Shown one piece after another: positions 3,189-49,160 of a stretch of DNA of 64,000 bases (its first letter is position 1; every line of letters begins with the position of its first letter). The stretch is taken from contig JAGOUX010000001.1 in NCBI GenBank assembly GCA_018061035.1, positions 76,249-140,248 on the forward strand. Direction: 5' to 3'. Made by a program: the position numbers and the translations under genes. The DNA comes from Minisyncoccota bacterium (GTDB taxonomy: Bacteria > Patescibacteriota > Minisyncoccia > Phycocordibacterales > UBA9973). The notes beneath the pieces are model-generated. The model was not told the DNA's origin, did no database searches, and saw nothing but the letters and a program-made list of their open reading frames with translations.

Positions 3189-3353
3189 TACTCCTTTGGA
3201 AGGGCCGGCATGCCGGCTGACTGGTGAAAATTACTAAAACTATATAATATAATTGCTAAATGTCAATGCATAGTTTTGAATAAAAGTTCCGTGTAGTGTT
3301 TTCTAAATTCTACATTGCTACGTTTTTTTGGTTTAATGTTATGATTAATAATC

Positions 3354-4016
3354 ATGAAACTAAATTTCACCTACAACAAAGACAAGGATATATGGTGCCT
3401 TCTAAATAAAGACAAGAGTTCTAATAATTCTCAGGCTTCCACCGAGCAGTACCAGCAGCTTATAAATAAATATGGAGAAAATCCAACAGCAGAAAACACG
3501 GCAATTTTTGTTGATGAGTATATTACTGAGAATAATATTGACATCGAGAAGTATATAAAGAATTTTCAAAAGGATTGGGAAAATATCTCTACTGTTTTTC
3601 AAAAAAATGCCGAAGCAATTTTCAATGTTTCACTTCCGACTGATGTAATTGTTTACCTTACAATAAACAGTCGTTGTCCTTACAGCATACAAGACAAGTT
3701 CTTTTATGTATCTCTGCAATCATCACAAGCAACAAAGACTATAATGCACGAGCTCTGGCATTTCTACACATGGTACGGACTTGGAATATACCAAGAGGAA
3801 AAGCTCGGCAAACAAAAATATAATGATATAAAAGAAGCACTGACTGTTTTGTTAAATGTCGAGTGTAAAGATTTATTTCCTGAGGGTGTTATAGATATTG
3901 GTTATCCCCAACACCAGGAAACACGACAACTAATTCTGAATTACTGGGAGAAAAATAAAGATATTAAAAGACTTTGGGAATATTTAGTGAGCTCCCCCAC
4001 CGAACCTACTTTTTAG
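3354..4016 (+). CDS. hypothetical protein with an HExxH motif (possible metallopeptidase-like)
   Basis: 220-aa ORF containing TIMHELWHFYTWYG (HExxH). No further family assignment is possible. Confidence 0.45.
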   Translation: MKLNFTYNKDKDIWCLLNKDKSSNNSQASTEQYQQLINKYGENPTAENTAIFVDEYITENNIDIEKYIKNFQKDWENISTVFQKNAEAIFNVSLPTDVIVYLTINSRCPYSIQDKFFYVSLQSSQATKTIMHELWHFYTWYGLGIYQEEKLGKQKYNDIKEALTVLLNVECKDLFPEGVIDIGYPQHQETRQLILNYWEKNKDIKRLWEYLVSSPTEPTF

Positions 4017-4548
4017 CCGTACAGAAAAACTCTCGCACACACCAGACCTTTCCACCCACTGGCTGGCTTATAGATTCACTAACAAAAGAATTCGGCATTT
4101 TATGTCCACCGTATTTTAAATCAAAAGAATCCATCATTTGTTGAACTTTTCCTGACTGCTTTAATTCTGCTTCGACGTTATTATGAGCTATTTGAGCATT
4201 AGCTCCAGACAACAGTGTTCCGCGTCTATCGAAATAATAATCTGCATCTCTCTCCTCACATTTAACAAAATTGCAATTCCAAATAAATTTAAATTTTTGA
4301 TCAGAAACCTCGATTCTTACAGAAGGGTTTTCGATCCTAGAAGGATATTGTTGTTTCAGGATATTCCCTACTCTATTAGCAAATTCATTTCCACTTTTAT
4401 GTGCTTCTGCTCCGTCTCCGGACTCATATATATATTCTGATTTATTTTGAAAGGATTCGGAAGCGCTGGCGTCCAAAGAAGATACTATCGCTGTTCCAGC
4501 TATTGCCTTACCTACTTGTTTTATAAAATCTCTACGTGACTCGTCCAT
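4006..4548 (-). CDS. secreted hypothetical protein with a twin-arginine (Tat)-type signal
   Basis: N-terminus MDESRRDFIKQVGKAIAGTAIVSS matches the S-R-R-x-F-[LI]-K Tat consensus followed by a hydrophobic h-region. Confidence 0.5.
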   Translation of the reverse strand: MDESRRDFIKQVGKAIAGTAIVSSLDASASESFQNKSEYIYESGDGAEAHKSGNEFANRVGNILKQQYPSRIENPSVRIEVSDQKFKFIWNCNFVKCEERDADYYFDRRGTLLSGANAQIAHNNVEAELKQSGKVQQMMDSFDLKYGGHKMPNSFVSESISQPVGGKVWCVREFFCTAKK

Positions 4549-4638
4549 ATTTCTATATTACCATAGTTTCAAATACCAATAAATCTGAATAAATATTTAA
4601 TAGATATTCCTTTCCACGTGATTTTCTATACAATTATA

Positions 4639-5073
4639 ATGTTATAATCTGCCTATGTTAATTAATCTAATTCTAAATCTTGCACTCGGGGTACTCGTAG
4701 GCTTCATTCTTGAATTCGTTTACCGGTCTCAACAAGCCAAGAAAATTGTTTGGCCGGAATTTATAAATATATTTATGTATGGAATAGTAGGAGTATGCCT
4801 AGTCTTACTATATTATTCTCATCTGAATTTATGGCTCGAACTAATTCTTCTCCTAATCATACCTAGCTTAATTGAATTCCTAACTGGATACATATATTTA
4901 AAGTTTAAAGGAATTTATCTATGGGATTATTCACAAGAATTTTTAAACTTTAGGTCCATCATTTGTATGAAATTTTCTTTAGCATGGTTTGTTCTTGCTG
5001 CGTTATACTACTATTTTATTTTTCCAAAAATATTTCTCTCATAGACACGTAAACAATTCCCTCCTTCCAATTA
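4639..5073 (+). repeat. 435-bp direct repeat, copy 2
   Basis: Identical to 2177-2611. Confidence 0.85.
4655..5044 (+). CDS. small membrane protein, copy 2 (identical to 2193-2582)
   Basis: Identical 129-aa translation. Confidence 0.5.
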   Translation: MLINLILNLALGVLVGFILEFVYRSQQAKKIVWPEFINIFMYGIVGVCLVLLYYSHLNLWLELILLLIIPSLIEFLTGYIYLKFKGIYLWDYSQEFLNFRSIICMKFSLAWFVLAALYYYFIFPKIFLS

Positions 5074-5099
5074 TTCCCCCAAAAAGCTAAAATAAACAC

Positions 5100-5657
5100 A
5101 TGGAACTCACAGAACTAGTTTTAACTCTAAAAATCCCGGCAACCATAGTCCACGTGGTCGCAGTCGTATTTGGTATGGGTAGCGCACTCGTGTCTGATCT
5201 GCTTTTCTCATTCTTCAGCAAAGACAAGCATTTGAACAAGACCGAGATGTCTACCCTCTCTATCCTCGCCACTGCTGTCTTTTATAGTTTAATACTCATC
5301 AGCCTGTCTGGATTAATAATTTTTCTTTCTGATATTGAAAAGTATTCTCATTCTGCAAAATTCCTAGCAAAAATAAGCATTCTCGCAATACTGATAATAA
5401 ATGGTTATGTGCTTAATAAATATGTCTGGCCTCACCTGCTTAATAAAAATTTCTTCACACTCAAGAAAGAACGCAATATCCGCAAGCTCGCCTTCGGATC
5501 CGGAGCAATATCTGTGATCTCTTGGCTCTCTGTCTGCGCTCTCGGAGTATTGGATAGTCTAAATATGCCGTATGTGGCAATCGTTTCCCTATATGCTTCC
5601 ATAATTGTATTGGGAACAATCGTGGCATTAGTTATTGAAAGAAAAGAATTCAACTAG
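5100..5657 (+). CDS. membrane protein, hypothetical
   Basis: 185-aa ORF with multiple hydrophobic segments. Confidence 0.5.
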   Translation: MELTELVLTLKIPATIVHVVAVVFGMGSALVSDLLFSFFSKDKHLNKTEMSTLSILATAVFYSLILISLSGLIIFLSDIEKYSHSAKFLAKISILAILIINGYVLNKYVWPHLLNKNFFTLKKERNIRKLAFGSGAISVISWLSVCALGVLDSLNMPYVAIVSLYASIIVLGTIVALVIERKEFN

Positions 5658-5730
5658 CAACGCCTCGAGAACCGAGACGGCTTCGAGGCGTAAAATAAAA
5701 CTATTATATTAAAAGAACTATTCGCCTGAA

Positions 5731-5765
5731 CCCGCCGGTAGACATTCACGGCGGGTTGTTCTTGC
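5731..5765 (+). terminator. GC hairpin CCCGCCG-N11-CGGCGGG followed by a T-rich tract
   Basis: Inverted repeat read directly. It lies between the 5100-5657 gene and a GC-rich patch. Confidence 0.4.
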
Positions 5766-5766
5766 G

Positions 5767-6141
5767 CTATCCCCGCTTTATTTCATTGGTCAACATGATT
5801 GCCCGCGGACCATGAATCCTGCGAATCCCATCGAACGATCTCGAGGGAGGCACGACCATGCGTTCCCTCGACAGCACCTGGCTGATGTACACCACATCGT
5901 TCGGATTCGGATCACTAAAGATCCTCAGGATAGTCTCACCCTCCTTCAGGATGAGGTACGGGGGCCTTTCCACCAGGAACTCATCTGCCCGCGCGATCTC
6001 CGTCAGGAACTTCTGATTCTCCGGCAGACTGACCGGAGTGATCTTCGAGGGGAGGAAGCCGTATTTCATCATGAGGGACACCAGCAACTTCATGCTGAGT
6101 GAGTTGACCTCCACGGTCGTGATCATTTCCAAAACAAACAT
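5767..6141 (-). CDS. hypothetical protein (GC-rich patch)
   Basis: 124-aa ORF. Several overlapping ORFs exist in this GC-rich patch, so frame choice is uncertain. Confidence 0.3.
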   Translation of the reverse strand: MFVLEMITTVEVNSLSMKLLVSLMMKYGFLPSKITPVSLPENQKFLTEIARADEFLVERPPYLILKEGETILRIFSDPNPNDVVYISQVLSRERMVVPPSRSFDGIRRIHGPRAIMLTNEIKRG

Positions 6142-6202
6142 CTGACATCCTCTCTGTGATTTGCATTCCCCGCCGGCGTGAGTGCCGGCGGGGTCTTACT
6201 CA

Positions 6203-10432: not shown

Positions 10433-10784
10433 TGTTTGCCAATGTAGTAGGTAATGTGTTGCTTCCTAGAGCTTTGCGTGTAGCAAATTTAACAGTTGTT
10501 TCTCTGTATCCCAATGAATGTGAAAGTTCTAAATCAATTTTATTTGAAAGTGACAAATATGTAAGCTCTAAGTCTCCTACCTGATTAGACAAATTGCGAG
10601 CCTGAGATTCCAAGCTCTTTCTCTCTACGATATTAAAAACCATATTCCCCAGAAATATAACGTATAAAAAGCCAAGCGCCAAAGATGCAAACAGCATAGA
10701 TCTGAGTATGCGAATAGCCATATCATTATTGATCATATTCACATTGCCTGCGTACATTTTTAGTTTTATTGTTGCTTGTTTCAT
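10422..10784 (-). CDS. ftsL: cell division protein FtsL-like
   Basis: 120-aa single-TM coiled-coil protein positioned between rsmH and ftsI. Confidence 0.5.
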   Translation of the reverse strand: MKQATIKLKMYAGNVNMINNDMAIRILRSMLFASLALGFLYVIFLGNMVFNIVERKSLESQARNLSNQVGDLELTYLSLSNKIDLELSHSLGYRETTVKFATRKALGSNTLPTTLANNEI

Positions 10785-11785
10785 TAAATTTTTTCTATTA
10801 TTCTTAACTTTGCACTTCTTGAACGTGGGTTATCTCTAATTTCTTCGGGGCTTGCAGTAATAGGCTTTTTGCTAATCACTTTGCATTTCCCTTCGATTTT
10901 CAGCTCATTGAAGAATTTTTTGGTGATGCGGTCTTCCAGACTATGGAAACTAATCACCGACATTCTTCCCCCTTCTCGTATTGCCTCAAATCCTTTTCTC
11001 AAACCCATCTCTAATGCTCCCAATTCATCGTTGACTGCTATTCTGATGGCTTGGAAGGTTCTAGTGGCAAAATGAAGCCTACCTCTTCGATACAAACTCG
11101 GCACTGCATCACTTATGATCTTGACCAGTTCAAAGGTGGTCTTGATCTCTCTTTGCTCTCTAGCGTCTACTATCGCTTTCGCGATTCTTCTACTAAATCT
11201 CTCCTCTCCGTATCCGTAAATGATATTTGCGAGGTTTTCCTCACTCCAACCATTCACGACATCACCGGCGGTAAGATCTTCTCTAGAAGGATTTTCTTTC
11301 ATGGTCATATGAAGAGGCTCGTCTCTCATAAATGAAAATCCTCGTAGAGAATTGTCTAACTGATCTGAACTCAATCCTAGGTCAAAAATTATCCCATCAA
11401 CTTTTTGTATTCCTTCATTCTCCAAAGCTTTGTCTAAGTCTCGGAAGTTTATATTCACAAATGAAATCTGTGATTTATAATTCTTAAACTTATGCTCGGC
11501 TCTCTCAAATGCTCCTTTGTCTTGATCAAGAGCAATAATTTTTGCTTTTGGAAATTTTGAGAATACCAATTCCGAATGTCCTCCACCACCAAAGGTAGCG
11601 TCAAGGACGACCGGACTCTGGCCACTCAAATTCAAACCGTATATTGTTTCTTGTAAAAGAACTGTCTTGTGAATGGTCTGTATTTTGTCCTGCATCTTAC
11701 AAACTTCCGTCAGAACCAAGCTTTTCTGCCAAGGCTTCAGCTTGCTTCTCGACGACTTCCCTATGTTCCGACCATGCTTTCTCAT
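10784..11785 (-). CDS. rsmH: 16S rRNA (cytosine1402-N4)-methyltransferase
   Basis: A.FGGGGHS SAM-binding motif with an MraW family-like layout, adjacent to mraZ. Confidence 0.9.
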   Translation of the reverse strand: MRKHGRNIGKSSRSKLKPWQKSLVLTEVCKMQDKIQTIHKTVLLQETIYGLNLSGQSPVVLDATFGGGGHSELVFSKFPKAKIIALDQDKGAFERAEHKFKNYKSQISFVNINFRDLDKALENEGIQKVDGIIFDLGLSSDQLDNSLRGFSFMRDEPLHMTMKENPSREDLTAGDVVNGWSEENLANIIYGYGEERFSRRIAKAIVDAREQREIKTTFELVKIISDAVPSLYRRGRLHFATRTFQAIRIAVNDELGALEMGLRKGFEAIREGGRMSVISFHSLEDRITKKFFNELKIEGKCKVISKKPITASPEEIRDNPRSRSAKLRIIEKI

Positions 11786-17978: not shown

Positions 17979-18905
17979 ATGACTTACGATTTAATTATTA
18001 TCGGTGGCGGACCGGCTGGTGTTGCTGCCTCTGTGTATGCTGCCCGCAAAAAACTAAAAACATTATTTATCACTTCAGAGTGGGGCGGACAATCCATAGT
18101 ATCAGAAAAAATTTATAACTGGATCGGAACTCCGGCTATTTCGGGCAATGAACTTGCCGAGAATTTTAAAAATCATGCTCTAGCCAATGCAGGCACTGAT
18201 TTGGAAATCAAAGAAGGTCACAAAGTTACAAATGTTTCAAAAAAAGATGAAGGATTTCTTGTTAAAACCGAAATCAATGAAGAATTCGAAACCAAAACTA
18301 TATTGGTAGCGAGTGGAAGTGGACGAAGAAAATTAGAGGCCAAAGGTGCCGATAGATTAGAACACAAGGGTCTCACCTATTGTGCTTCGTGCGACGGCCC
18401 CCTATTTGCAGACCAAGACGTGGTAGTCATAGGTGGAGGTAATGCCGGATTCGAATCCGCGGCCCAACTTGTAGCATACTGCAAATCAGTAACTATATTA
18501 AATCGAAGTGAAGTTTTTCGAGCCGACGAAGTCACAGTGGAAAAAGTTCTTCGTAATCCGAAAGTTACAGCAATCAAAAATGCTCAAACCCTAGAAGTAA
18601 CCGGCGATAAATTTGTAGATGGCATAATATACAAAGATGTAACTACAGGTGAAGAAAAGAAATTATCAGTTGCGGGTATATTCGTAGAGATAGGGCAAAT
18701 TCCAAATACAGATTATATAAAAGAAGTAGTGCCACTCGATGAATTAGGACGAGTAAAAATAAACTTTGCCAATCAAAAAACCGAAACACCTGGAATATGG
18801 GCCGCTGGAGACTGCACCAATGTCCTCTATCACCAGAACAATATCGCAGCCGGAGACGCCGTGCGTGCACTCGAAGATATCTATCTAGCTATTCACGCAA
18901 AATAA
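17979..18905 (+). CDS. trxB: thioredoxin-disulfide reductase
   Basis: FAD motif GGGPAG, redox-active CASCDG, and a second nucleotide-binding GGGNAG motif. Confidence 0.85.
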   Translation: MTYDLIIIGGGPAGVAASVYAARKKLKTLFITSEWGGQSIVSEKIYNWIGTPAISGNELAENFKNHALANAGTDLEIKEGHKVTNVSKKDEGFLVKTEINEEFETKTILVASGSGRRKLEAKGADRLEHKGLTYCASCDGPLFADQDVVVIGGGNAGFESAAQLVAYCKSVTILNRSEVFRADEVTVEKVLRNPKVTAIKNAQTLEVTGDKFVDGIIYKDVTTGEEKKLSVAGIFVEIGQIPNTDYIKEVVPLDELGRVKINFANQKTETPGIWAAGDCTNVLYHQNNIAAGDAVRALEDIYLAIHAK

Positions 18906-19340
18906 TTAAGCTGCAAAATCCAAATCAGTTTGGGAACTCGGCAAATGCTTGTCGATCTTATTATCTCTTTGTTTGTTCATAAGTTTTGAGTACATATATC
19001 TTAGGAGCTTTAAAGATGCCTCTGTCTCAGGCATATTTTTAAATTTTGCAAGATCTCTAACTACCTTGGCAATTTCTGGCGGAAAAACCCTTTTACTTTC
19101 AAATCTCTCGAACAATTCCATCATCTCATCAGTAAGGTGTTCTACATGAATTCTTTTAATTTCTGTATTATTAGAATCTCCTGCCAATATTTCCACTTTT
19201 GTGCGGAAGATTTTCATCTTATTTTGTAACTCCTTTTCGTTGTGCCGAGCAAAAGAATCTACTTCTTGCATATTGAAATATTCGTCAAATTTATTTTTCG
19301 GATCTGGCTTGTGGTCAAAATTTAGATTTCCCTCTTGCAT
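18906..19340 (-). CDS. hypothetical protein
   Basis: 144-aa ORF with no motif recognised. Confidence 0.4.
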   Translation of the reverse strand: MQEGNLNFDHKPDPKNKFDEYFNMQEVDSFARHNEKELQNKMKIFRTKVEILAGDSNNTEIKRIHVEHLTDEMMELFERFESKRVFPPEIAKVVRDLAKFKNMPETEASLKLLRYMYSKLMNKQRDNKIDKHLPSSQTDLDFAA

Positions 19341-19499
19341 CTAAATATTATACCACTTATTGCGGAGATGGTGAGAATTTCACTACTCGGCTAAAGCCTG
19401 CGTTTTGGAACCTTGAGGTTCCAACGCTGTCGCTGCCTCCACCACGGGGAAACTCCTGTTTCCCCGACCCCTTTCCCCGTTCAAACTCACGTCTTCCTG

Positions 19500-19585
19500 C
19501 GGAGATGGTGAGATTTGAACTCACGATACCTTTTGAGTATGCCGGTTTTCGAAACCGGTGCATTCAACCACTCTGCCACATCTCC
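19500..19585 (-). tRNA. tRNA-Ser (anticodon CGA), class II with long variable arm
   Basis: Acceptor GGAGATG/CATCTCC, anticodon stem CCGGT/ACCGG with loop TTCGAAA, a long variable arm, and T-loop GTTCAAATC. Confidence 0.75.
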
Positions 19586-19596
19586 AAGATTTTAAT

Positions 19597-19616
19597 TGTG
19601 ACCTTACCGGGAATCG
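19597..19616 (-). repeat. 20-nt duplicate of the 3' end of tRNA-Glu(TTC) (att-like fragment)
   Basis: tgtgaccttaccgggaatcg is identical to 19766-19785 (tRNA-Glu 3' end plus 2 nt). Confidence 0.6.
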
Positions 19617-19767
19617 CGAGTACGCTTTCGGTCACAAGTATTTTTCTGCTGAAAAATCTCGCGACCCCGCCTCGACACCGTCGTGTCTCCGGCTTTCGAT
19701 TCTCTCCGCAAGGAGATCACTGGCGATACAAAAACCACCAGATAAAATCTGATGTTTTTTGATCGTG

Positions 19768-19839
19768 TGACCTTACCGGGAATCGAACCCGGATTACAGC
19801 CTTGAAAAGGCCGTGTCCTAACCGTTAGACGATAAGGCC
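19768..19839 (-). tRNA. tRNA-Glu (anticodon TTC)
   Basis: Acceptor GGCCTTA/TAAGGTC, anticodon stem CGGCC/GGCTG with loop TTTTCAA, and T-arm CCGGGTTCGATTCCCGG. Confidence 0.8.
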
Positions 19840-19875
19840 AAACACTATTTTGATTCTCACTCAACTTAGTTTCTA

Positions 19876-19928
19876 CCCTTTTGAAAAGGCCGTGTCCGCT
19901 CCATTTAACTTGGTTAGACGATAAGGCC
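19876..19928 (-). pseudogene. tRNA-Glu 5'-half pseudo-copy (acceptor to anticodon loop, with an expanded D-loop and no 3' half)
   Basis: GGCCTTATCGTCTAAC...GGACACGGCCTTTTCAA is shared with the intact tRNA-Glu. The D-loop carries an insertion of about 10 nt, and the 3' side of the anticodon stem is absent. Confidence 0.5.
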
Positions 19929-20025
19929 AGCGATGAAACTAAGCAAAAATATAATAACATTTATATGGAAAATTGCAAAAATTGACCCTAAACTTTAATG
20001 ATGTTAATCTTTTAGCGGAGGCAAA

Positions 20026-20244
20026 ATGGTGACACAAAGTTGTGTGAGAGAATTTTTGCGTGCAATATCTGGCGCAACAAGACCGGTCACTGATCAGACC
20101 ATGGTCACTGATCTTGGTCTGTTCCATACGACCATCGCGAAGGTTGAGATTCGTTACCGTAGAATTTTGACCATGCCCGACGAGAGCGCGGCAACCGTGC
20201 GGGACATCATTCACCAGATCGCTGGCCAAGATGACACCTTCTAG
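20026..20244 (+). CDS. hypothetical small protein (GC-rich islet)
   Basis: GGAGG is 5 nt upstream of the ATG. Composition is GC-rich. First gene of a two-gene unit. Confidence 0.4.
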   Translation: MVTQSCVREFLRAISGATRPVTDQTMVTDLGLFHTTIAKVEIRYRRILTMPDESAATVRDIIHQIAGQDDTF

Positions 20245-20253
20245 GAGAAGAAC

Positions 20254-20523
20254 ATGACTGAAGCTAATTCTTCTATTTGGTGGAGCGTGTTTTCTTTCAT
20301 CCGCTTCCACACAAACATCGAGATCGGTGAAGGCACACTGTTGTCAGACATCAAGCGTTATCCAGCAGGGCTCGTCATGTTGTGCGAGCATCACTACGGA
20401 ATCGAGCTCAACATCGACAAACCAATGTCGGAGATCACAGTGGGAAGGCTCATTCGCGCGATCTTGCAAGCTCAAGTGAGCAAAGCAAGAGAAAGGGCAA
20501 GCCAGGCTGCCTCAGAAGCCTGA
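20254..20523 (+). CDS. hypothetical small protein (GC-rich islet)
   Basis: AGGAGA RBS, 9 nt after the upstream stop. A terminator hairpin follows at 20552-20592. Confidence 0.4.
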   Translation: MTEANSSIWWSVFSFIRFHTNIEIGEGTLLSDIKRYPAGLVMLCEHHYGIELNIDKPMSEITVGRLIRAILQAQVSKARERASQAASEA

Positions 20524-20551
20524 TAGTTCTTCGGTGTATTTGCGACCAGTG

Positions 20552-20592
20552 GGCCGGATGTCTCAGACACTCCGGCCATTACTTTTTATTTT
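20552..20592 (+). terminator. rho-independent terminator (GGCCGGA-N12-TCCGGCC then a T-run)
   Basis: Read directly from the sequence. Confidence 0.6.
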
Positions 20593-20742
20593 TATATTCA
20601 AAATGAGTGTATTTAAACGAAAGCACCCCACAAAAGCTGGGCGCCTTGCGGGGTGTTGATGAAAACTATTTTATTTAAAAAAAAGAACATTTCTATTTGC
20701 CCTCCCCGCTCCGACTTTCGCCGGAGCGGGTCGCTGACATTC

Positions 20743-21129
20743 TCAGTGCAGCGTGATCTTGGGTGGTGCCTTTGGCTCCATGCCAAGGTACATCTTGCCA
20801 ATCATCATCAGGAACTCTGGCGCCGGAAGGCATGCGGCCAGAAGAACCGTCTCGTCATCGCACAGAAATACCGCAGGAACACCCTCAGTCGCTCGGTTCC
20901 CGTAACGATTGGCCGCTGTTGCCTCTTCATGCAGTTCACCAAAGTGAACTGCACAAATGTCGCTGAACTCGATGTGGTTCACCAACAACCACTCGCGAAT
21001 CTGTTCACAGCGTGGATCGTGCGGATTCGGACCGAAGTACACCCGAATATTTGGATTGACCAATTCAGTCACAATACCTCCACGAAAGAAAGCTGCCTCG
21101 GTACCATGATGGTGCGAGGCAGAGATCAA
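20743..21129 (-). CDS. thioredoxin-fold (glutaredoxin-like) protein, start uncertain (no ATG; TTG/GTG)
   Basis: beta-alpha-beta order ...IRVYFGPNPHDPRCEQIREWLL...TEGVPAVFL.DDETVL resembles the glutaredoxin layout with a single Cys. GC-rich. Confidence 0.35.
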   Translation of the reverse strand: MISASHHHGTEAAFFRGGIVTELVNPNIRVYFGPNPHDPRCEQIREWLLVNHIEFSDICAVHFGELHEEATAANRYGNRATEGVPAVFLCDDETVLLAACLPAPEFLMMIGKMYLGMEPKAPPKITLH

Positions 21130-21222
21130 AACCGATATTACACTAGAAGAAAGGACAAACGAGATGTACTCCCCGTCCTCGCTCCGACTGGTATTCGGAG
21201 CGAGGAATCGGTCAGGTGGCGC

Positions 21223-21414
21223 CTATTCGCGATCGCCGCCGCAGTTCTTGCAAATGAGCACTCCGCCGAGACGGAGAAGCGGCTCACCGCAGGTCTCGCA
21301 ACTCAACTCCACAACCTGCGAAGGACGCCGGGCGATGATCTTCTGGACCATTGCGCGGGCCGCCGCAGTCTTCGACGGGTCGAACACGAGCCCGAGTTCA
21401 GCACATGTTTGCAT
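21223..21414 (-). CDS. small zinc-ribbon protein
   Basis: AAGGAG RBS 7 nt before the ATG. Two CxxC pairs (CETCG...CKNCG). Confidence 0.5.
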   Translation of the reverse strand: MQTCAELGLVFDPSKTAAARAMVQKIIARRPSQVVELSCETCGEPLLRLGGVLICKNCGGDRE

Positions 21415-21508
21415 GGTACATCTCCTTAATCAACATAATACCCCTATTTATCAAATCTGTCAATAATATTTAATTGAAAAAGAAGAGGCATAATGCTACT
21501 CTGTCTCT

Positions 21509-22255
21509 ATGGATAATGTCCAAATAATCATATTGGCCGCGGGTAAAGGCACACGAATGAACTCCGAGGAGCCCAAGGCTCTTGCTTTGCTCAAGGGCAA
21601 GCCTTTTTTAAAGCACATACTAGAAACCCTCGAAACTCTCAACCTCGCTCTCCCGCCAGTCATTGTTGTCGGTCACAAAAAGGAGCGAATATTCGAGGTT
21701 GTCGGACCAGACTACACATATGCAAACCAGCATGAACAACTCGGCACAGGGCATGCAGTAATGTCCGCCAAAGAAAGCCTTCATGATGATCACAAAATAA
21801 TATTAGTGATCTCAACCGACCAACCTCTCATCTCAAAAGAAACAATTTTGAACATTATCGAAAAGCACAAAGCACATGGCTCTACTATCACCATGGCCAC
21901 AGCCACACTCCCCGACTTCGAGGATTGGCGCGCGGGACTGGTGAAGTTCGGCAGAATATTGCGAGATAAAAATGGCGACCTTGAAAGCATCGTGGAATTC
22001 AAAGATGCAACCGATGAGCAAAAAAATATTACCGAAGTTAATCCCGCACTGTATGCTTTTGACGCGAAGTGGCTTTGGGAAAATATTGGTAAGCTCGGCA
22101 AACAAAATGCTCAAGGCGAATACTATCTTACTGATCTGATCCACCTGGCATTCGAGCAACACAAGAATATTGAAACTGTGCCACTTTCAAACACCAACGA
22201 AGTAATCCAGCCGAATTCGCAAGAAGAGCTTGAATTATTGGAGAAATTTGCGTAA
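21509..22255 (+). CDS. sugar-phosphate nucleotidyltransferase (GlmU N-terminal-like domain only)
   Basis: LAAGKGTRM nucleotidyltransferase signature. At 248 aa it lacks the acetyltransferase hexapeptide domain. Confidence 0.7.
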
Positions 22256-28260: not shown

Positions 28261-28281
28261 AACATACTGAGTTATTATTTG

Positions 28282-28354
28282 TGCCGAGGACCAGAGTTGA
28301 ACTGGTGACATCTCCCTCTTCAGGGGAGCGCTCTACCAACTGAGCTACCTCGGC
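28282..28354 (-). tRNA. tRNA-Phe (anticodon GAA)
   Basis: Acceptor GCCGAGG/CCTCGGC, D-arm AGCTCAGTTGGTAGAGC, anticodon stem CTCCC/GGGAG with loop CTGAAGA. Confidence 0.85.
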
Positions 28355-28422
28355 ATATTCTACTTATTGTAACTTAATTTGCGTATACCTACCAAAACAG
28401 CTACCTCGGCATATTCTACTTA

Positions 28423-29189: not shown

Positions 29190-29789
29190 TTATTTGATAG
29201 ACGTCGGTGGCTTGGGTTGGATGTCAATATTCATCTGGTCGGGTGCAGTCCCATCCAGAACCCGATACACCTGTGCCTTGGCGTCGTAGCCCGTGTGGTA
29301 ATGCAGAGAGCGCCAGGCAATATCGCCTGGCTGAGCGAGTGAACACTTGAGCGCCCTATCGTCTCCGATGAAGGTGTAATCCCACCGCTCGCCCGTTTGA
29401 GGGTTAACTGCCAAGATCATGCAAGCCGCCCTCTCGCTTGCAATTTGCTTGGTGTCTGTAGAGCCGACAAGCGCGCCGAATGCCGTGCTTGTGAGAACAC
29501 CAATCGGTGTCCCATTCAAGAGGACCGCAACGCCGCCGCCCACGGCCGCCCCAGTACCTGCGTTCGACTTGACGGTCGAAATCACCGTGCGGTTTTGACG
29601 AACCGACTCGACAAGCCATGGTGTCCACTTCCAGACCCCAAGGATGTCTTTCTGCTCCCAAGGCGCGGGGAGCTGGACTTTGGCTTCCGTCGACACAGTT
29701 TGAACCGCCCTGCCCTTCTGGGCAAAAACCGGCGGCATAGCACAACATAGAGCAATTACAACTACGAAGAACAACCTAGCTCGGTTCAT
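29190..29789 (-). CDS. secreted hypothetical protein (GC-rich islet)
   Basis: Sec signal MNRARLFFVVVIALCCAMPPVFAQ. GC content is far above background. Confidence 0.5.
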   Translation of the reverse strand: MNRARLFFVVVIALCCAMPPVFAQKGRAVQTVSTEAKVQLPAPWEQKDILGVWKWTPWLVESVRQNRTVISTVKSNAGTGAAVGGGVAVLLNGTPIGVLTSTAFGALVGSTDTKQIASERAACMILAVNPQTGERWDYTFIGDDRALKCSLAQPGDIAWRSLHYHTGYDAKAQVYRVLDGTAPDQMNIDIQPKPPTSIK

Positions 29790-48971: not shown

Positions 48972-48989
48972 CTAAATAAATGACCTAAC

Positions 48990-49160
48990 CCTTAGGTATC
49001 CCTTAAGGTATGGCCGCAAGACCCATGGAAAGTACTGAACCCTACGTTCAGCGCTCTTCCATGGGCCGTATCTGGAAACGGATACGGGGTCGCAAGACCC
49101 AGCTGGCGTGGGGTTCTGTGCGTTCTCACGCTAGCTATTATTAGCTAGCTTTTATTTTTT
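48990..49160 (+). ncRNA. candidate structured RNA (GC-rich, multi-hairpin) ending in a strong intrinsic terminator
   Basis: Hairpins include CCCATGGAA...TTCCATGGG, CTGAAC/GTTCAG, GTATC/GATAC and GGGTC-GCAA-GACCC (GNRA loop). The terminator is GCTAGCT-attatt-AGCTAGC followed by TTTTATTTTTT. GC content is far above background. Confidence 0.3.

Follow-up and report, generated by a model that had tools for sequence, protein, structure and literature searches.

Genomic islands classically land at tRNA genes. In islands of this sort, as collected in the Islander catalogue (PMC4383910), elements of the tyrosine-integrase type leave a regenerated tRNA gene and a displaced 3' fragment of the same gene. 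In the tycheposons of Prochlorococcus, degraded arrays have been described (bioRxiv 10.1101/2020.12.28.424599). Such tRNA-targeted integrative elements, including the tycheposon arrays, are the nearest known kind to the features treated here, which lie between trxB and an NTP-transferase gene (ntp) on contig JAGOUX010000001.1 of a Minisyncoccota bacterium (assembly GCA_018061035.1). The window, i.e. the whole stretch of DNA that was analysed, comprises 64,000 nucleotides (positions 76,249 to 140,248 of the contig). In its trxB–ntp interval, partial copies of tRNA-Glu and tRNA-Ser lie close to a block of raised guanine-cytosine (GC) content, and an initial annotation had read both together as the remnant of a decayed island. 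We lean towards two unrelated changes in this lineage of Paceibacteria, a part of the Candidate Phyla Radiation (CPR): small tRNA inserts without an open reading frame (ORF), and a GC-rich islet independent of them. The tRNA fragments do not bracket the islet.

Other described systems offer partial parallels. REP/REPIN sequences (RAYT), the PATE of IS200/IS605 and the omega-RNA of TnpB are non-autonomous hairpin elements that are moved as single-stranded DNA (ssDNA) or supply a guide derived from the flank; elements of the REP/PATE type produce no target duplication or one of fixed length, and the gene they enter is not regenerated. The attC sites of integrons and the attP hairpin of the CTX phage (XerCD) are attachment (att) sites folded from a single strand. 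In archaea, non-canonical tRNA introns and split tRNAs (Thermoproteales, Nanoarchaeum) have insertions at the D-loop, the variable region and the T-loop.

The insert behind tRNA-Glu and its structured core

Both tRNA genes of the interval are read on the minus strand, and tRNA-Glu is followed by a non-coding insert of about 170 nt (19597–19766, minus) that contains no ORF. Along the tRNA strand, the features are as follows:

19767–19839, minus: intact tRNA-Glu(UUC), called by ARAGORN and Rfam
19724–19765, minus: hairpin resembling an intrinsic terminator, directly behind tRNA-Glu and within the inserted unit
19698–19720, minus: left arm, which copies the tRNA-Glu 3' end imperfectly and in antisense
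19630–19697, minus: conserved structured core (covariance model R1, 83 bits, E 1.6e-17)
19617–19629, minus: linker with the mini-hairpin GAAAGCGTACTCG, joining the core to the tRNA copy
19597–19616, minus: exact 20-nt copy of the tRNA-Glu(UUC) 3' end, equal to 19766–19785; 3' strand of the closing helix P0, 11 nt from tRNA-Ser
19499–19585, minus: intact tRNA-Ser(CGA), called by ARAGORN and Rfam

The copy of the tRNA-Glu end runs from C56 in the T-loop (position 55/56) to position 73 and includes one further base. Within the window it was recovered by blastn-short at an E-value of 1e-5, and a 21-nt pattern of it, with up to three mismatches allowed, gave no match across 100 shuffles. A chance origin of the tRNA fragments of the interval was ruled out by shuffles and E-values, and all of them are non-random. 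The initial annotation had already recognised the exact copy as well as the intact tRNA-Glu(TTC), and both entries stand.

The left arm pairs with 19598–19615 to form helix P0, and the whole unit folds at a free energy of -70.9 kcal/mol (z -6.2). The 13-nt linker is common to six other of the collected loci, which are numbered here (L037, L040, L041, L102, L118 and L141), and the terminator-like hairpin is a part of the insert that is conserved with L041 and L141. The insert combines a regenerated intact tRNA with a displaced 3' fragment in direct orientation, and no ORF lies inside it. By analogy with another locus (L091, described below), the copy at 19597–19616 would be the native 3' end of tRNA-Glu, displaced from its gene. 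Its distance of 11 nt from tRNA-Ser fits an earlier arrangement in which tRNA-Glu and tRNA-Ser were adjacent, as they are in L013 (33 nt apart).

The family to which the core belongs was pinned down by reading the tRNA strand of the window beside the related loci L009 and L010, which share the motif ...GAAAGCCGGAG-hairpin-CGAGGC-GGGGUCGCGAG AUUUUUCAGCAGAAAAAU A CUUGUGACC. In the window, this motif begins 98 nt from the end of tRNA-Glu, and the tRNA copy begins 25 nt past the motif pattern. A degenerate 27-nt version of the pattern matched at least 120 metagenome contigs and had no match in viral contigs; a phage origin of the core was rejected on this ground. A covariance model, R1, was derived from a gapless seed of 47 sequences from which the window copy was left out, and it gave 132 matches in 100 sources, and an alignment of the matches was made with the model. 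The window copy matches R1 over its full length, with its three helices intact.

The core has a length of 66 nt and three helices. It opens with GAAAG, followed by a 3-bp helix, a GGA/GA internal loop, a P2 hairpin of 4–5 bp and a P3 hairpin of 16 bp with a bulged A and an apical UUUUCAGCAGAAAA. In the core alignment, 98% of the paired cells are occupied by pairs, compared with 34–50% when the partners are slid, and compensatory changes are found at 8 of the 23 pairs in the seed alignment and at 21 of the 23 in the full alignment. In P3, 118 of 124 sequences have G.U as the fifth pair, and because of this invariant G.U the fold is confined to the tRNA-sense strand, whether as RNA or ssDNA. Judged by eye, the GGA/GA internal loop resembles tandem sheared G.A pairs.

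Within 19597–19766 only tRNAs passed the gathering score of Rfam 15, and at E-values up to 10 nothing overlapped the core, so that a known RNA family was rejected, with Rfam returning tRNAs and noise only. Hammerhead, twister and HDV-like ribozymes, parts of group I and group II introns, and the k-turn were compared by eye and did not fit. The element is not described in Rfam or in the literature searched, and its absence there is no proof of novelty.

The core is linked to tRNA genes across loci. Among the 98 sites with enough upstream sequence, 57 (58%) have a tRNA gene on the same strand 30–260 nt upstream, compared with 3.1% of random positions in the same loci, and only one site has a tRNA on the opposite strand alone. 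The tRNAs involved are those for Ala, Arg, Asn, Glu, Gly, Ile, Leu, Lys, Met, Pro, Ser, Thr, Trp, Tyr and Val. At about 20 sites, the GUGAC of the core is followed by an exact 13–21-nt copy of the respective tRNA, running from position 55/56 to the 3' end, and in the window too the upstream tRNA on the same strand has its own 3' end copied behind the core. Flanking direct repeats of at least 8 nt were found at 28% of the sites (control 3%) and of at least 18 nt at 12% (control 0).

The arm just 5' of the core is complementary to the start, or to the whole, of the tRNA copy. In a crude test of arm complementarity (helices of at least 7 bp) this was seen as an excess of 34% over 14%, which is only modest because the T-arms of all tRNAs are alike. 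The antisense arm stands on the side of the core that is near the tRNA in the 3' arrangement and also in the 5' arrangement found at tRNA-Asn, and the tRNA copy follows the sequence of its own tRNA in each genome, for example when the window is compared with L141. The tRNA-Glu 3' fragment of the window is an arm of a conserved, covarying and tRNA-associated family of elements.

Large serine recombinases were found beside tRNA-Asn in a few loci only. In L147 (1746–3446), and likewise in L065, L123 and L100, the gene for such a recombinase overlaps the 3' end of tRNA-Asn(GUU). The core lies on the 5' side of this tRNA, in the order sense copy of positions 1–11, core, antisense copy of positions 18–1.

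Further copies in the window and in related genomes

Beyond the insert behind tRNA-Glu, the window contains the following features of tRNA origin or tRNA association:

19377–19498, minus: tRNA-Ser insert, 122 nt, non-coding and rich in hairpins (-50.8 kcal/mol, z -2.5)
19356–19384, minus: displaced copy of the 3' part of tRNA-Ser(CGA), which begins in the T-loop and extends 2–6 nt past the terminus
19881–19929, minus: pseudo 5' half of tRNA-Glu, in two exact colinear blocks of 17 nt
19951–19979, minus: promoter-like site, TTGCAA and TATTAT spaced by 16 nt, with a TG extension
273–425, plus: second, variant member of the family (14 bits), directly behind tRNA-Glu(CUC) at 200–272

The copy of the tRNA-Ser end, which had been overlooked in the initial annotation, sits 122 nt downstream of tRNA-Ser and is exact over 15 nt (19362–19376) and 83% identical over 29 nt (19356–19384). 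The layout here is that of an intact tRNA, a structured insert and a displaced 3' end from the T-loop on. The closing helix makes use of the tRNA fragment, and the core of this insert is unlike the conserved family.

In the pseudo 5' half, 19913–19929 corresponds to tRNA positions 1–16 and 19881–19897 to positions 22–38; a 15-nt filler takes the place of 5 nt in the D-loop, and the similarity stops directly past the anticodon loop. An extended -10 promoter precedes this pseudo half and not the intact tRNA-Glu, and it resembles the tRNA-Glu promoter of L009 and L010. From its position and this resemblance, the pseudo half appears to mark the old 5' end of the gene, with the intact gene now 89 nt further in. 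The arrangement is the same as in L009 and L105, where the intervening sequence still has the core, whereas in the window the scan with model R1 found no conserved core and the fold is no better than that of shuffled sequence (z +0.3). Among the collected loci, the unrelated contig L105 alone has a relative of this pseudo half, with the same D-loop filler (CGTCTAACCAAGTTA...AGCGGACA) and inside an array of partial 5' copies. An origin of the pseudo half by plain slippage is conceivable.

Elsewhere in the window, 56 nt upstream of tRNA-Phe (28281–28354, minus), a 34-nt copy (91%) of its first 22 nt and 12 nt of flank was found; this duplication (28333–28422) is a simple 56-nt tandem and lacks the conserved core. 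The variant member at 273–425 reads GGGGTCGGCAAGTACTTAC...GTAACTTGTGACC, has a hairpin formed from the terminal CAC of the tRNA and its trailer, and is homologous to L009 6627–6732, L010 75–180 and L011 196–367.

Comparison of relatives revealed gain or loss of the element. The loci L009 and L010 are near-identical, and the element is present in L009 and absent in L010 at three sites, namely the gap between tRNA-Ser and tRNA-Val, the gap between tRNA-Val and the start of ntp, and tRNA-Glu. At tRNA-Glu, L009 has a 192-nt insertion flanked by a 46-nt repeat of tRNA-Glu positions 1–46. Tandem units were found in L035, L055 and L120, and the distribution of the element is patchy among syntenic relatives.

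In L091, one and the same left-hand module occurs at tRNA-Ser(CGA) and at tRNA-Ser(UGA), each time followed by the 3' end of the gene at that place. The distal copy at tRNA-Ser(CGA) has an encoded CCA and a terminator, and the 3' end of the intact gene runs into the element; from the native CCA, the distal copy is taken to be the displaced native end and the proximal one to be borne by the element. By this topology islands in tRNA genes are defined (PMC4383910). At about 3345–3560 (minus) of the same locus, positions 1–43 of tRNA-Ser(UGA) are joined to an element that is followed by the native 3' end with CCA. No intact copy adjoins this interrupted gene, and ARAGORN makes no call. Either the gene has become a pseudogene, or its tRNA requires removal of the insert from the T-loop region.

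Versions on the 5' side were found as well, in which partial 5' copies of a tRNA, located upstream of the intact gene, are interrupted by the core or end in it. These copies cover the following tRNA positions:

tRNA-Glu 1–46 (L009, L105)
tRNA-Pro 1–55 (L073)
tRNA-Val 1–26 (L113)
tRNA-Ala 1–24 (L142)
tRNA-Ser 1–17 (L054)

In L096 (about 10673–10790, minus), the core was found where an rplL-like ORF ends; a 17-nt direct repeat, of which the stop codon is a part, flanks it there. It follows that the element is not strictly specific for tRNA genes. L011 has tRNA fragments of its own, two 15-nt copies of the tRNA-Glu 3' end and 5' copies of tRNA-Val, and within 187–2820 of this locus a 2.2-kb segment with three ORFs lies between the tRNA-Glu 3' repeats at 393–407 and 2806–2820. 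Several scraps resembling T-arms are scattered in this segment, and a second, AT-rich type of core precedes the second repeat; this type was also found downstream of tRNA-Glu in L105.

In the arrangement that we propose, the order along the tRNA strand would be an intact tRNA whose part from the T-loop to the 3' end comes from the insert, a terminator hairpin, an arm antisense to the tRNA 3' end, the structured core, and the displaced native 3' end. The core would be closed by the helix of the antisense arm with the tRNA copy, and the element is assumed to be transcribed together with the tRNA. It would enter tRNA genes at loop positions (here at 55/56 in the T-loop) and regenerate the gene that it enters, and the pseudo 5' half would be left over from an older event of this kind on the 5' side. 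The small inserts would then be non-autonomous mobile or recombinogenic elements. Candidate agents for their movement are an integrase acting on a mini-attP, an ssDNA route (resembling an HUH transposon or a folded att site), or a process at the level of RNA.

An account that we regard as possible, if unlikely, is that the element does not move at all and is a cis-acting host RNA in tRNA transcripts, such as a small RNA in the trailer, a protein-binding module or a switch, with the tRNA-derived arms as built-in parts. Two partners would be open to the antisense arm, the real tRNA and the decoy copy, and the choice between them would couple folding of the core to tRNA maturation. Such a role would agree with the strong constraint on sequence and covariation, including the invariant G.U, the bulged A and the conserved apical loop, and with the strict co-orientation with tRNA genes. 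The constant position of the antisense arm on the tRNA side makes two mutually exclusive helices possible, the copy tracks the sequence of its own tRNA across genomes (window and L141), and no mobility gene is associated. However, a fixed host RNA is difficult to reconcile with presence and absence in near-identical genomes, with tandem arrays, with the patchy occurrence among syntenic relatives, or with the multiple copies in a locus, which adjoin many different tRNAs and, in L096, the 3' end of a protein gene. Copies also lie inside truncated tRNA copies (L113, L142, L054 and L073), and exact duplications of 17–46 nt would be left unexplained.

The GC-rich islet and the trxB–ntp interval

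Past the promoter of tRNA-Glu, on the 5' side of this gene, begins the GC-rich islet, which ends at the promoter region of ntp (about 19980–21470). It comprises four small ORFs:

20026–20523, plus: two orphan ORFs (72 aa, 89 aa), each with a ribosome-binding site; a terminator hairpin follows at about 20534–20575
20743–21075, minus: orphan ORF of about 110 aa, start near 21072, with a hairpin at 20700–20735
21223–21414, minus: orphan ORF of 63 aa with CxxC...CxxC, with a hairpin at 21173–21206

The GC content of the islet is 0.496, compared with 0.386 for the window (z 2.7), a value reached by 16 of 1250 equal-sized windows, nearly all of which overlap the islet. GC at third codon positions (GC3) of the four ORFs is 0.56–0.72, compared with 0.35 +/- 0.10 (z-scores 2.1–3.7). 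Ribosome-binding sites precede 20026, 20254 and 21414, a GGAGG stands before the GTG start near 21072, and the hairpins behind the two ORFs on the minus strand are related to each other.

No homologues of the islet ORFs were found among billions of proteins; word-indexed searches gave only near-identical matches of the same species, and an exhaustive phmmer search gave only weak, repeat-driven matches to two giant repetitive proteins, which were judged uninformative. Nothing exceeded the threshold in Pfam or PHROGs, and there was no match to a recombinase. The DNA of the islet had no match in phage or plasmid collections, and a phage or plasmid origin was rejected for lack of such a match. The same block was found on contigs of the same species from four samples.

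The thioredoxin fold of the initial annotation would be no more than putative for the ORF at 20743–21075, which has no Pfam match, no CxxC and a single Cys (DPRC); its AlphaFold2 model from the single sequence reached a mean confidence (pLDDT) of 45, at which a beta-alpha...beta-beta-alpha pattern is only suggestive. In the 63-aa ORF (21223–21414), the motifs CETC and CKNC and a best Pfam match to a zinc ribbon (E 7.6e-4, 20 bits against a cut-off of 24) make a zinc ribbon plausible.

The bacterium is of the Paceibacteria/Nomurabacteria type, and its proteins are listed under 'Candidatus Pacebacteria'. A total of 27 related loci, the closest being metagenome-assembled genomes of Nomurabacteria or Paceibacterota, was gathered via the adjacent ntp. 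They share the backbone ftsZ-trxB-[tRNA-Ser, tRNA-Glu]-ntp-(tRNA-Val)-tsaD, and the neighbours in the window are ftsA, ftsZ, trxB, ntp, tsaD and valS. Between trxB and ntp, content and orientation vary among relatives. From tRNA-Glu to ntp there are 157 nt in L015, about 1.6 kb with a different gene in L013, and 3.7 kb with five genes in L012; tRNA-Glu is inverted in L028, and L009, L010 and L011 are rearranged. The four islet ORFs and a 144-aa ORF beside tRNA-Ser (18906–19340) have no homologue in these 27 loci. The trxB–ntp interval is a hotspot of change across the lineage.

One strain (L001) is 99.3% identical to the window, with 52 single nucleotide polymorphisms (SNPs) over 7.4 kb. Within 18117–21609 there are only two, one in the P2 loop (19682) and one at 19877, and the islet is free of them, compared with 8–19 SNPs per kb in ftsA, ftsZ and tsaD. 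This SNP desert suggests that the whole variable segment, including the 144-aa orphan ORF, was recently recombined, shared or spread.

At the same hotspot, L009 has a 690-aa ORF (4125–6197, minus; GC 0.25) beside tRNA-Glu, which is absent from the window. By its N-terminal GxxGxGKS motif it looks like a P-loop ATPase, and it may be a cargo gene of the defence type. In the window, a second GC-rich ORF (GC 0.57; 29190–29789, minus; 199 aa) with an N-terminus resembling a signal peptide and without a Pfam match lies just downstream of tRNA-Gly(CCC). In L008 only about 340 nt separate tRNA-Arg and tRNA-Gly, and from this short gap the ORF may be another islet adjacent to a tRNA.

In the reading preferred here, the islet would be an independent acquisition, probably through horizontal transfer, of a species-specific block of four small orphan genes that came to lie between the tRNA-Glu promoter and ntp. 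The initial annotation had instead proposed a decayed island, integrated into tRNA-Glu and deprived of its integrase, with the tRNA-Glu and tRNA-Ser fragments as att scars. We consider this improbable. In its favour are the atypical GC and GC3 of the islet, its orphan ORFs, its absence from syntenic relatives, and its position in the SNP desert between two strains; in addition, the pseudo 5' half directly adjoins the islet, L011 has its three-ORF segment between two tRNA-Glu 3' repeats, and the opposite orientation of tRNA-Glu in L028 and L011 makes past inversions conceivable.

Against it, a pattern search found no tRNA-Glu-like repeat within the islet or at its end near ntp (21400–21510), the only matches being at 19598–19618 and 19911–19928. 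Canonical islands lie between the regenerated tRNA and the displaced 3' fragment (PMC4383910), whereas the islet lies 5' of the tRNA and its promoter and is not bounded in this way. Both 3' fragments stand on the opposite side of the tRNAs and enclose only 122–150 nt. The tRNA-Glu 3' fragment is accounted for by the conserved element, and the pseudo 5' half has a homologue in L105 that is part of an array of partial copies. No integrase is encoded by the four ORFs of the islet, and the genes around it are housekeeping genes.

Several entries of the initial annotation were borne out, namely the 5'-half pseudo-copy with an inflated D-loop (two exact 17-nt blocks and a 15-nt filler), the GC-rich block behind it, for which a check of composition gave the values above, the ribosome-binding sites at 20026, 20254 and 21414, and the lack of an integrase, none of which was found within about 3 kb. 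Its reading of duplicated tRNA ends as footprints of integration holds for the topology of insertion at tRNA genes and fails for the islet, whose footprints they are not. The alignment against relatives that it had suggested showed a variable interval from which the islet is absent, and tied the fragments to the small inserts and not to the islet; the proposed search for the block in phage and plasmid DNA returned nothing. With the fragments as arms of an element and the islet unbracketed, the proposal of a decayed island with att scars merges two separate things.

A purely local origin of the fragments, by duplication through replication slippage or unequal recombination and with no element involved, can be largely discounted as a general explanation. 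The sequence from tRNA to copy consists of structured inserts and not of duplicated flank, one of the inserts belongs to a family of more than 130 members, and the copies in about 20 independent loci, from many isotypes, share one starting position in the T-loop. In favour of such an origin, the window has its 56-nt tandem duplication at tRNA-Phe and a pseudo 5' half that lacks a core and folds no better than shuffled sequence.

A further structured RNA of the window, unconnected in position to this interval, is a LOOT RNA (RF03000) at 48982–49100 (plus), found at 78 bits, well above the gathering score.

Comparison with described elements and meaning

Several observations weigh against the two-change reading with small mobile inserts. 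No protein family, and no recombinase family either, is enriched within 3.5 kb of about 120 sites, and among these sites there are no larger copies that carry cargo and no distant copies of the arms. The flanking repeats range from 7 to 46 nt, unlike the fixed duplication of a standard transposase, and a single integrase would not usually produce such a range. An exact repeat is missing at about half of the sites, and at about 40% no tRNA lies within 260 nt upstream. The strong conservation of the core fits an RNA that benefits the host equally well. The tRNA-Ser insert has no relatives among the collected loci, which leaves its layout as the basis for its membership in the class, and the foreign origin of the islet is deduced from composition and distribution, with no donor found.

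The likeness to tRNA-targeted islands lies in the target tRNA, which is split and then regenerated from sequence borne by the insert, and in the displaced fragment from T-loop to 3' end, which stands in direct orientation at the far end. Shared with islands and tycheposons, too, are the tandem arrays and the partial tRNAs scattered at hotspots, in streamlined genomes. Unlike islands, the inserts measure 100–250 nt and have neither ORF nor integrase, and a covarying single-strand fold with a built-in antisense arm lies exactly at the junction. Their repeats are 7–46 nt long, they also enter at the D-loop, at position 26 and at 46/47, and they occur in 5'-side versions. One core serves many isotypes, and the islet of the window, which does bear genes, is not bounded by repeats.

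With REP and PATE elements the inserts have in common that they are small, lack ORFs, occur in multiple copies between genes, and form strand-specific hairpins that tolerate G.T or G.U. As in these elements and in TnpB systems, the structured end passes at once into flank, and a short antisense "guide" stands beside the hairpin. As regards miniature inverted-repeat transposable elements and PATE, hairpins are present and the flanking repeats range from 7 to 46 nt. The core of three helices differs from the ends of REP and IS200, and it has no match in Rfam. No HUH transposase or TnpB was found nearby in the analysis of the neighbourhood, to which the search of the genomes was confined.

Folded att sites are a further parallel, as the sense and antisense arms could mimic a double-stranded target and the structure of the stem is conserved above its sequence. 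In contrast to them, the sequence of the core is also highly conserved and the target is a tRNA gene; in this comparison, no integron integrase and no dif-like site were present. Archaeal tRNA introns share the same loop positions, complementary arms that unite the parts of a tRNA, and an interrupted gene such as tRNA-Ser(UGA) in L091. In bacteria, no bulge-helix-bulge (BHB) splicing endonuclease is known. Splicing is unneeded here because in almost all loci an intact tRNA copy stands beside the interrupted partial one.

Tentatively, the core may represent a new class of CPR elements that lack ORFs, are structured as a single strand and are targeted by an antisense arm, either as mobile RNA or ssDNA (resembling a guide or a ribozyme) or as a switch of tRNA maturation by decoy and antisense. 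If this were true, genome plasticity in ultra-small bacteria would be linked by a new mechanism to tRNA genes and to small structured RNAs. A mobile element would be a minimal tRNA-targeting one, which perhaps recognises its target by base pairing and without an integrase of its own; a host RNA would represent a new and abundant class of RNA tied to tRNA transcripts. The covariance model R1 offers a direct handle for a survey of the family. Partial tRNAs are usually read as scars of integrases, whereas in this CPR lineage many of them are arms of a structured element without a protein, and tRNA fragments alone should not be used to delimit islands in CPR genomes.

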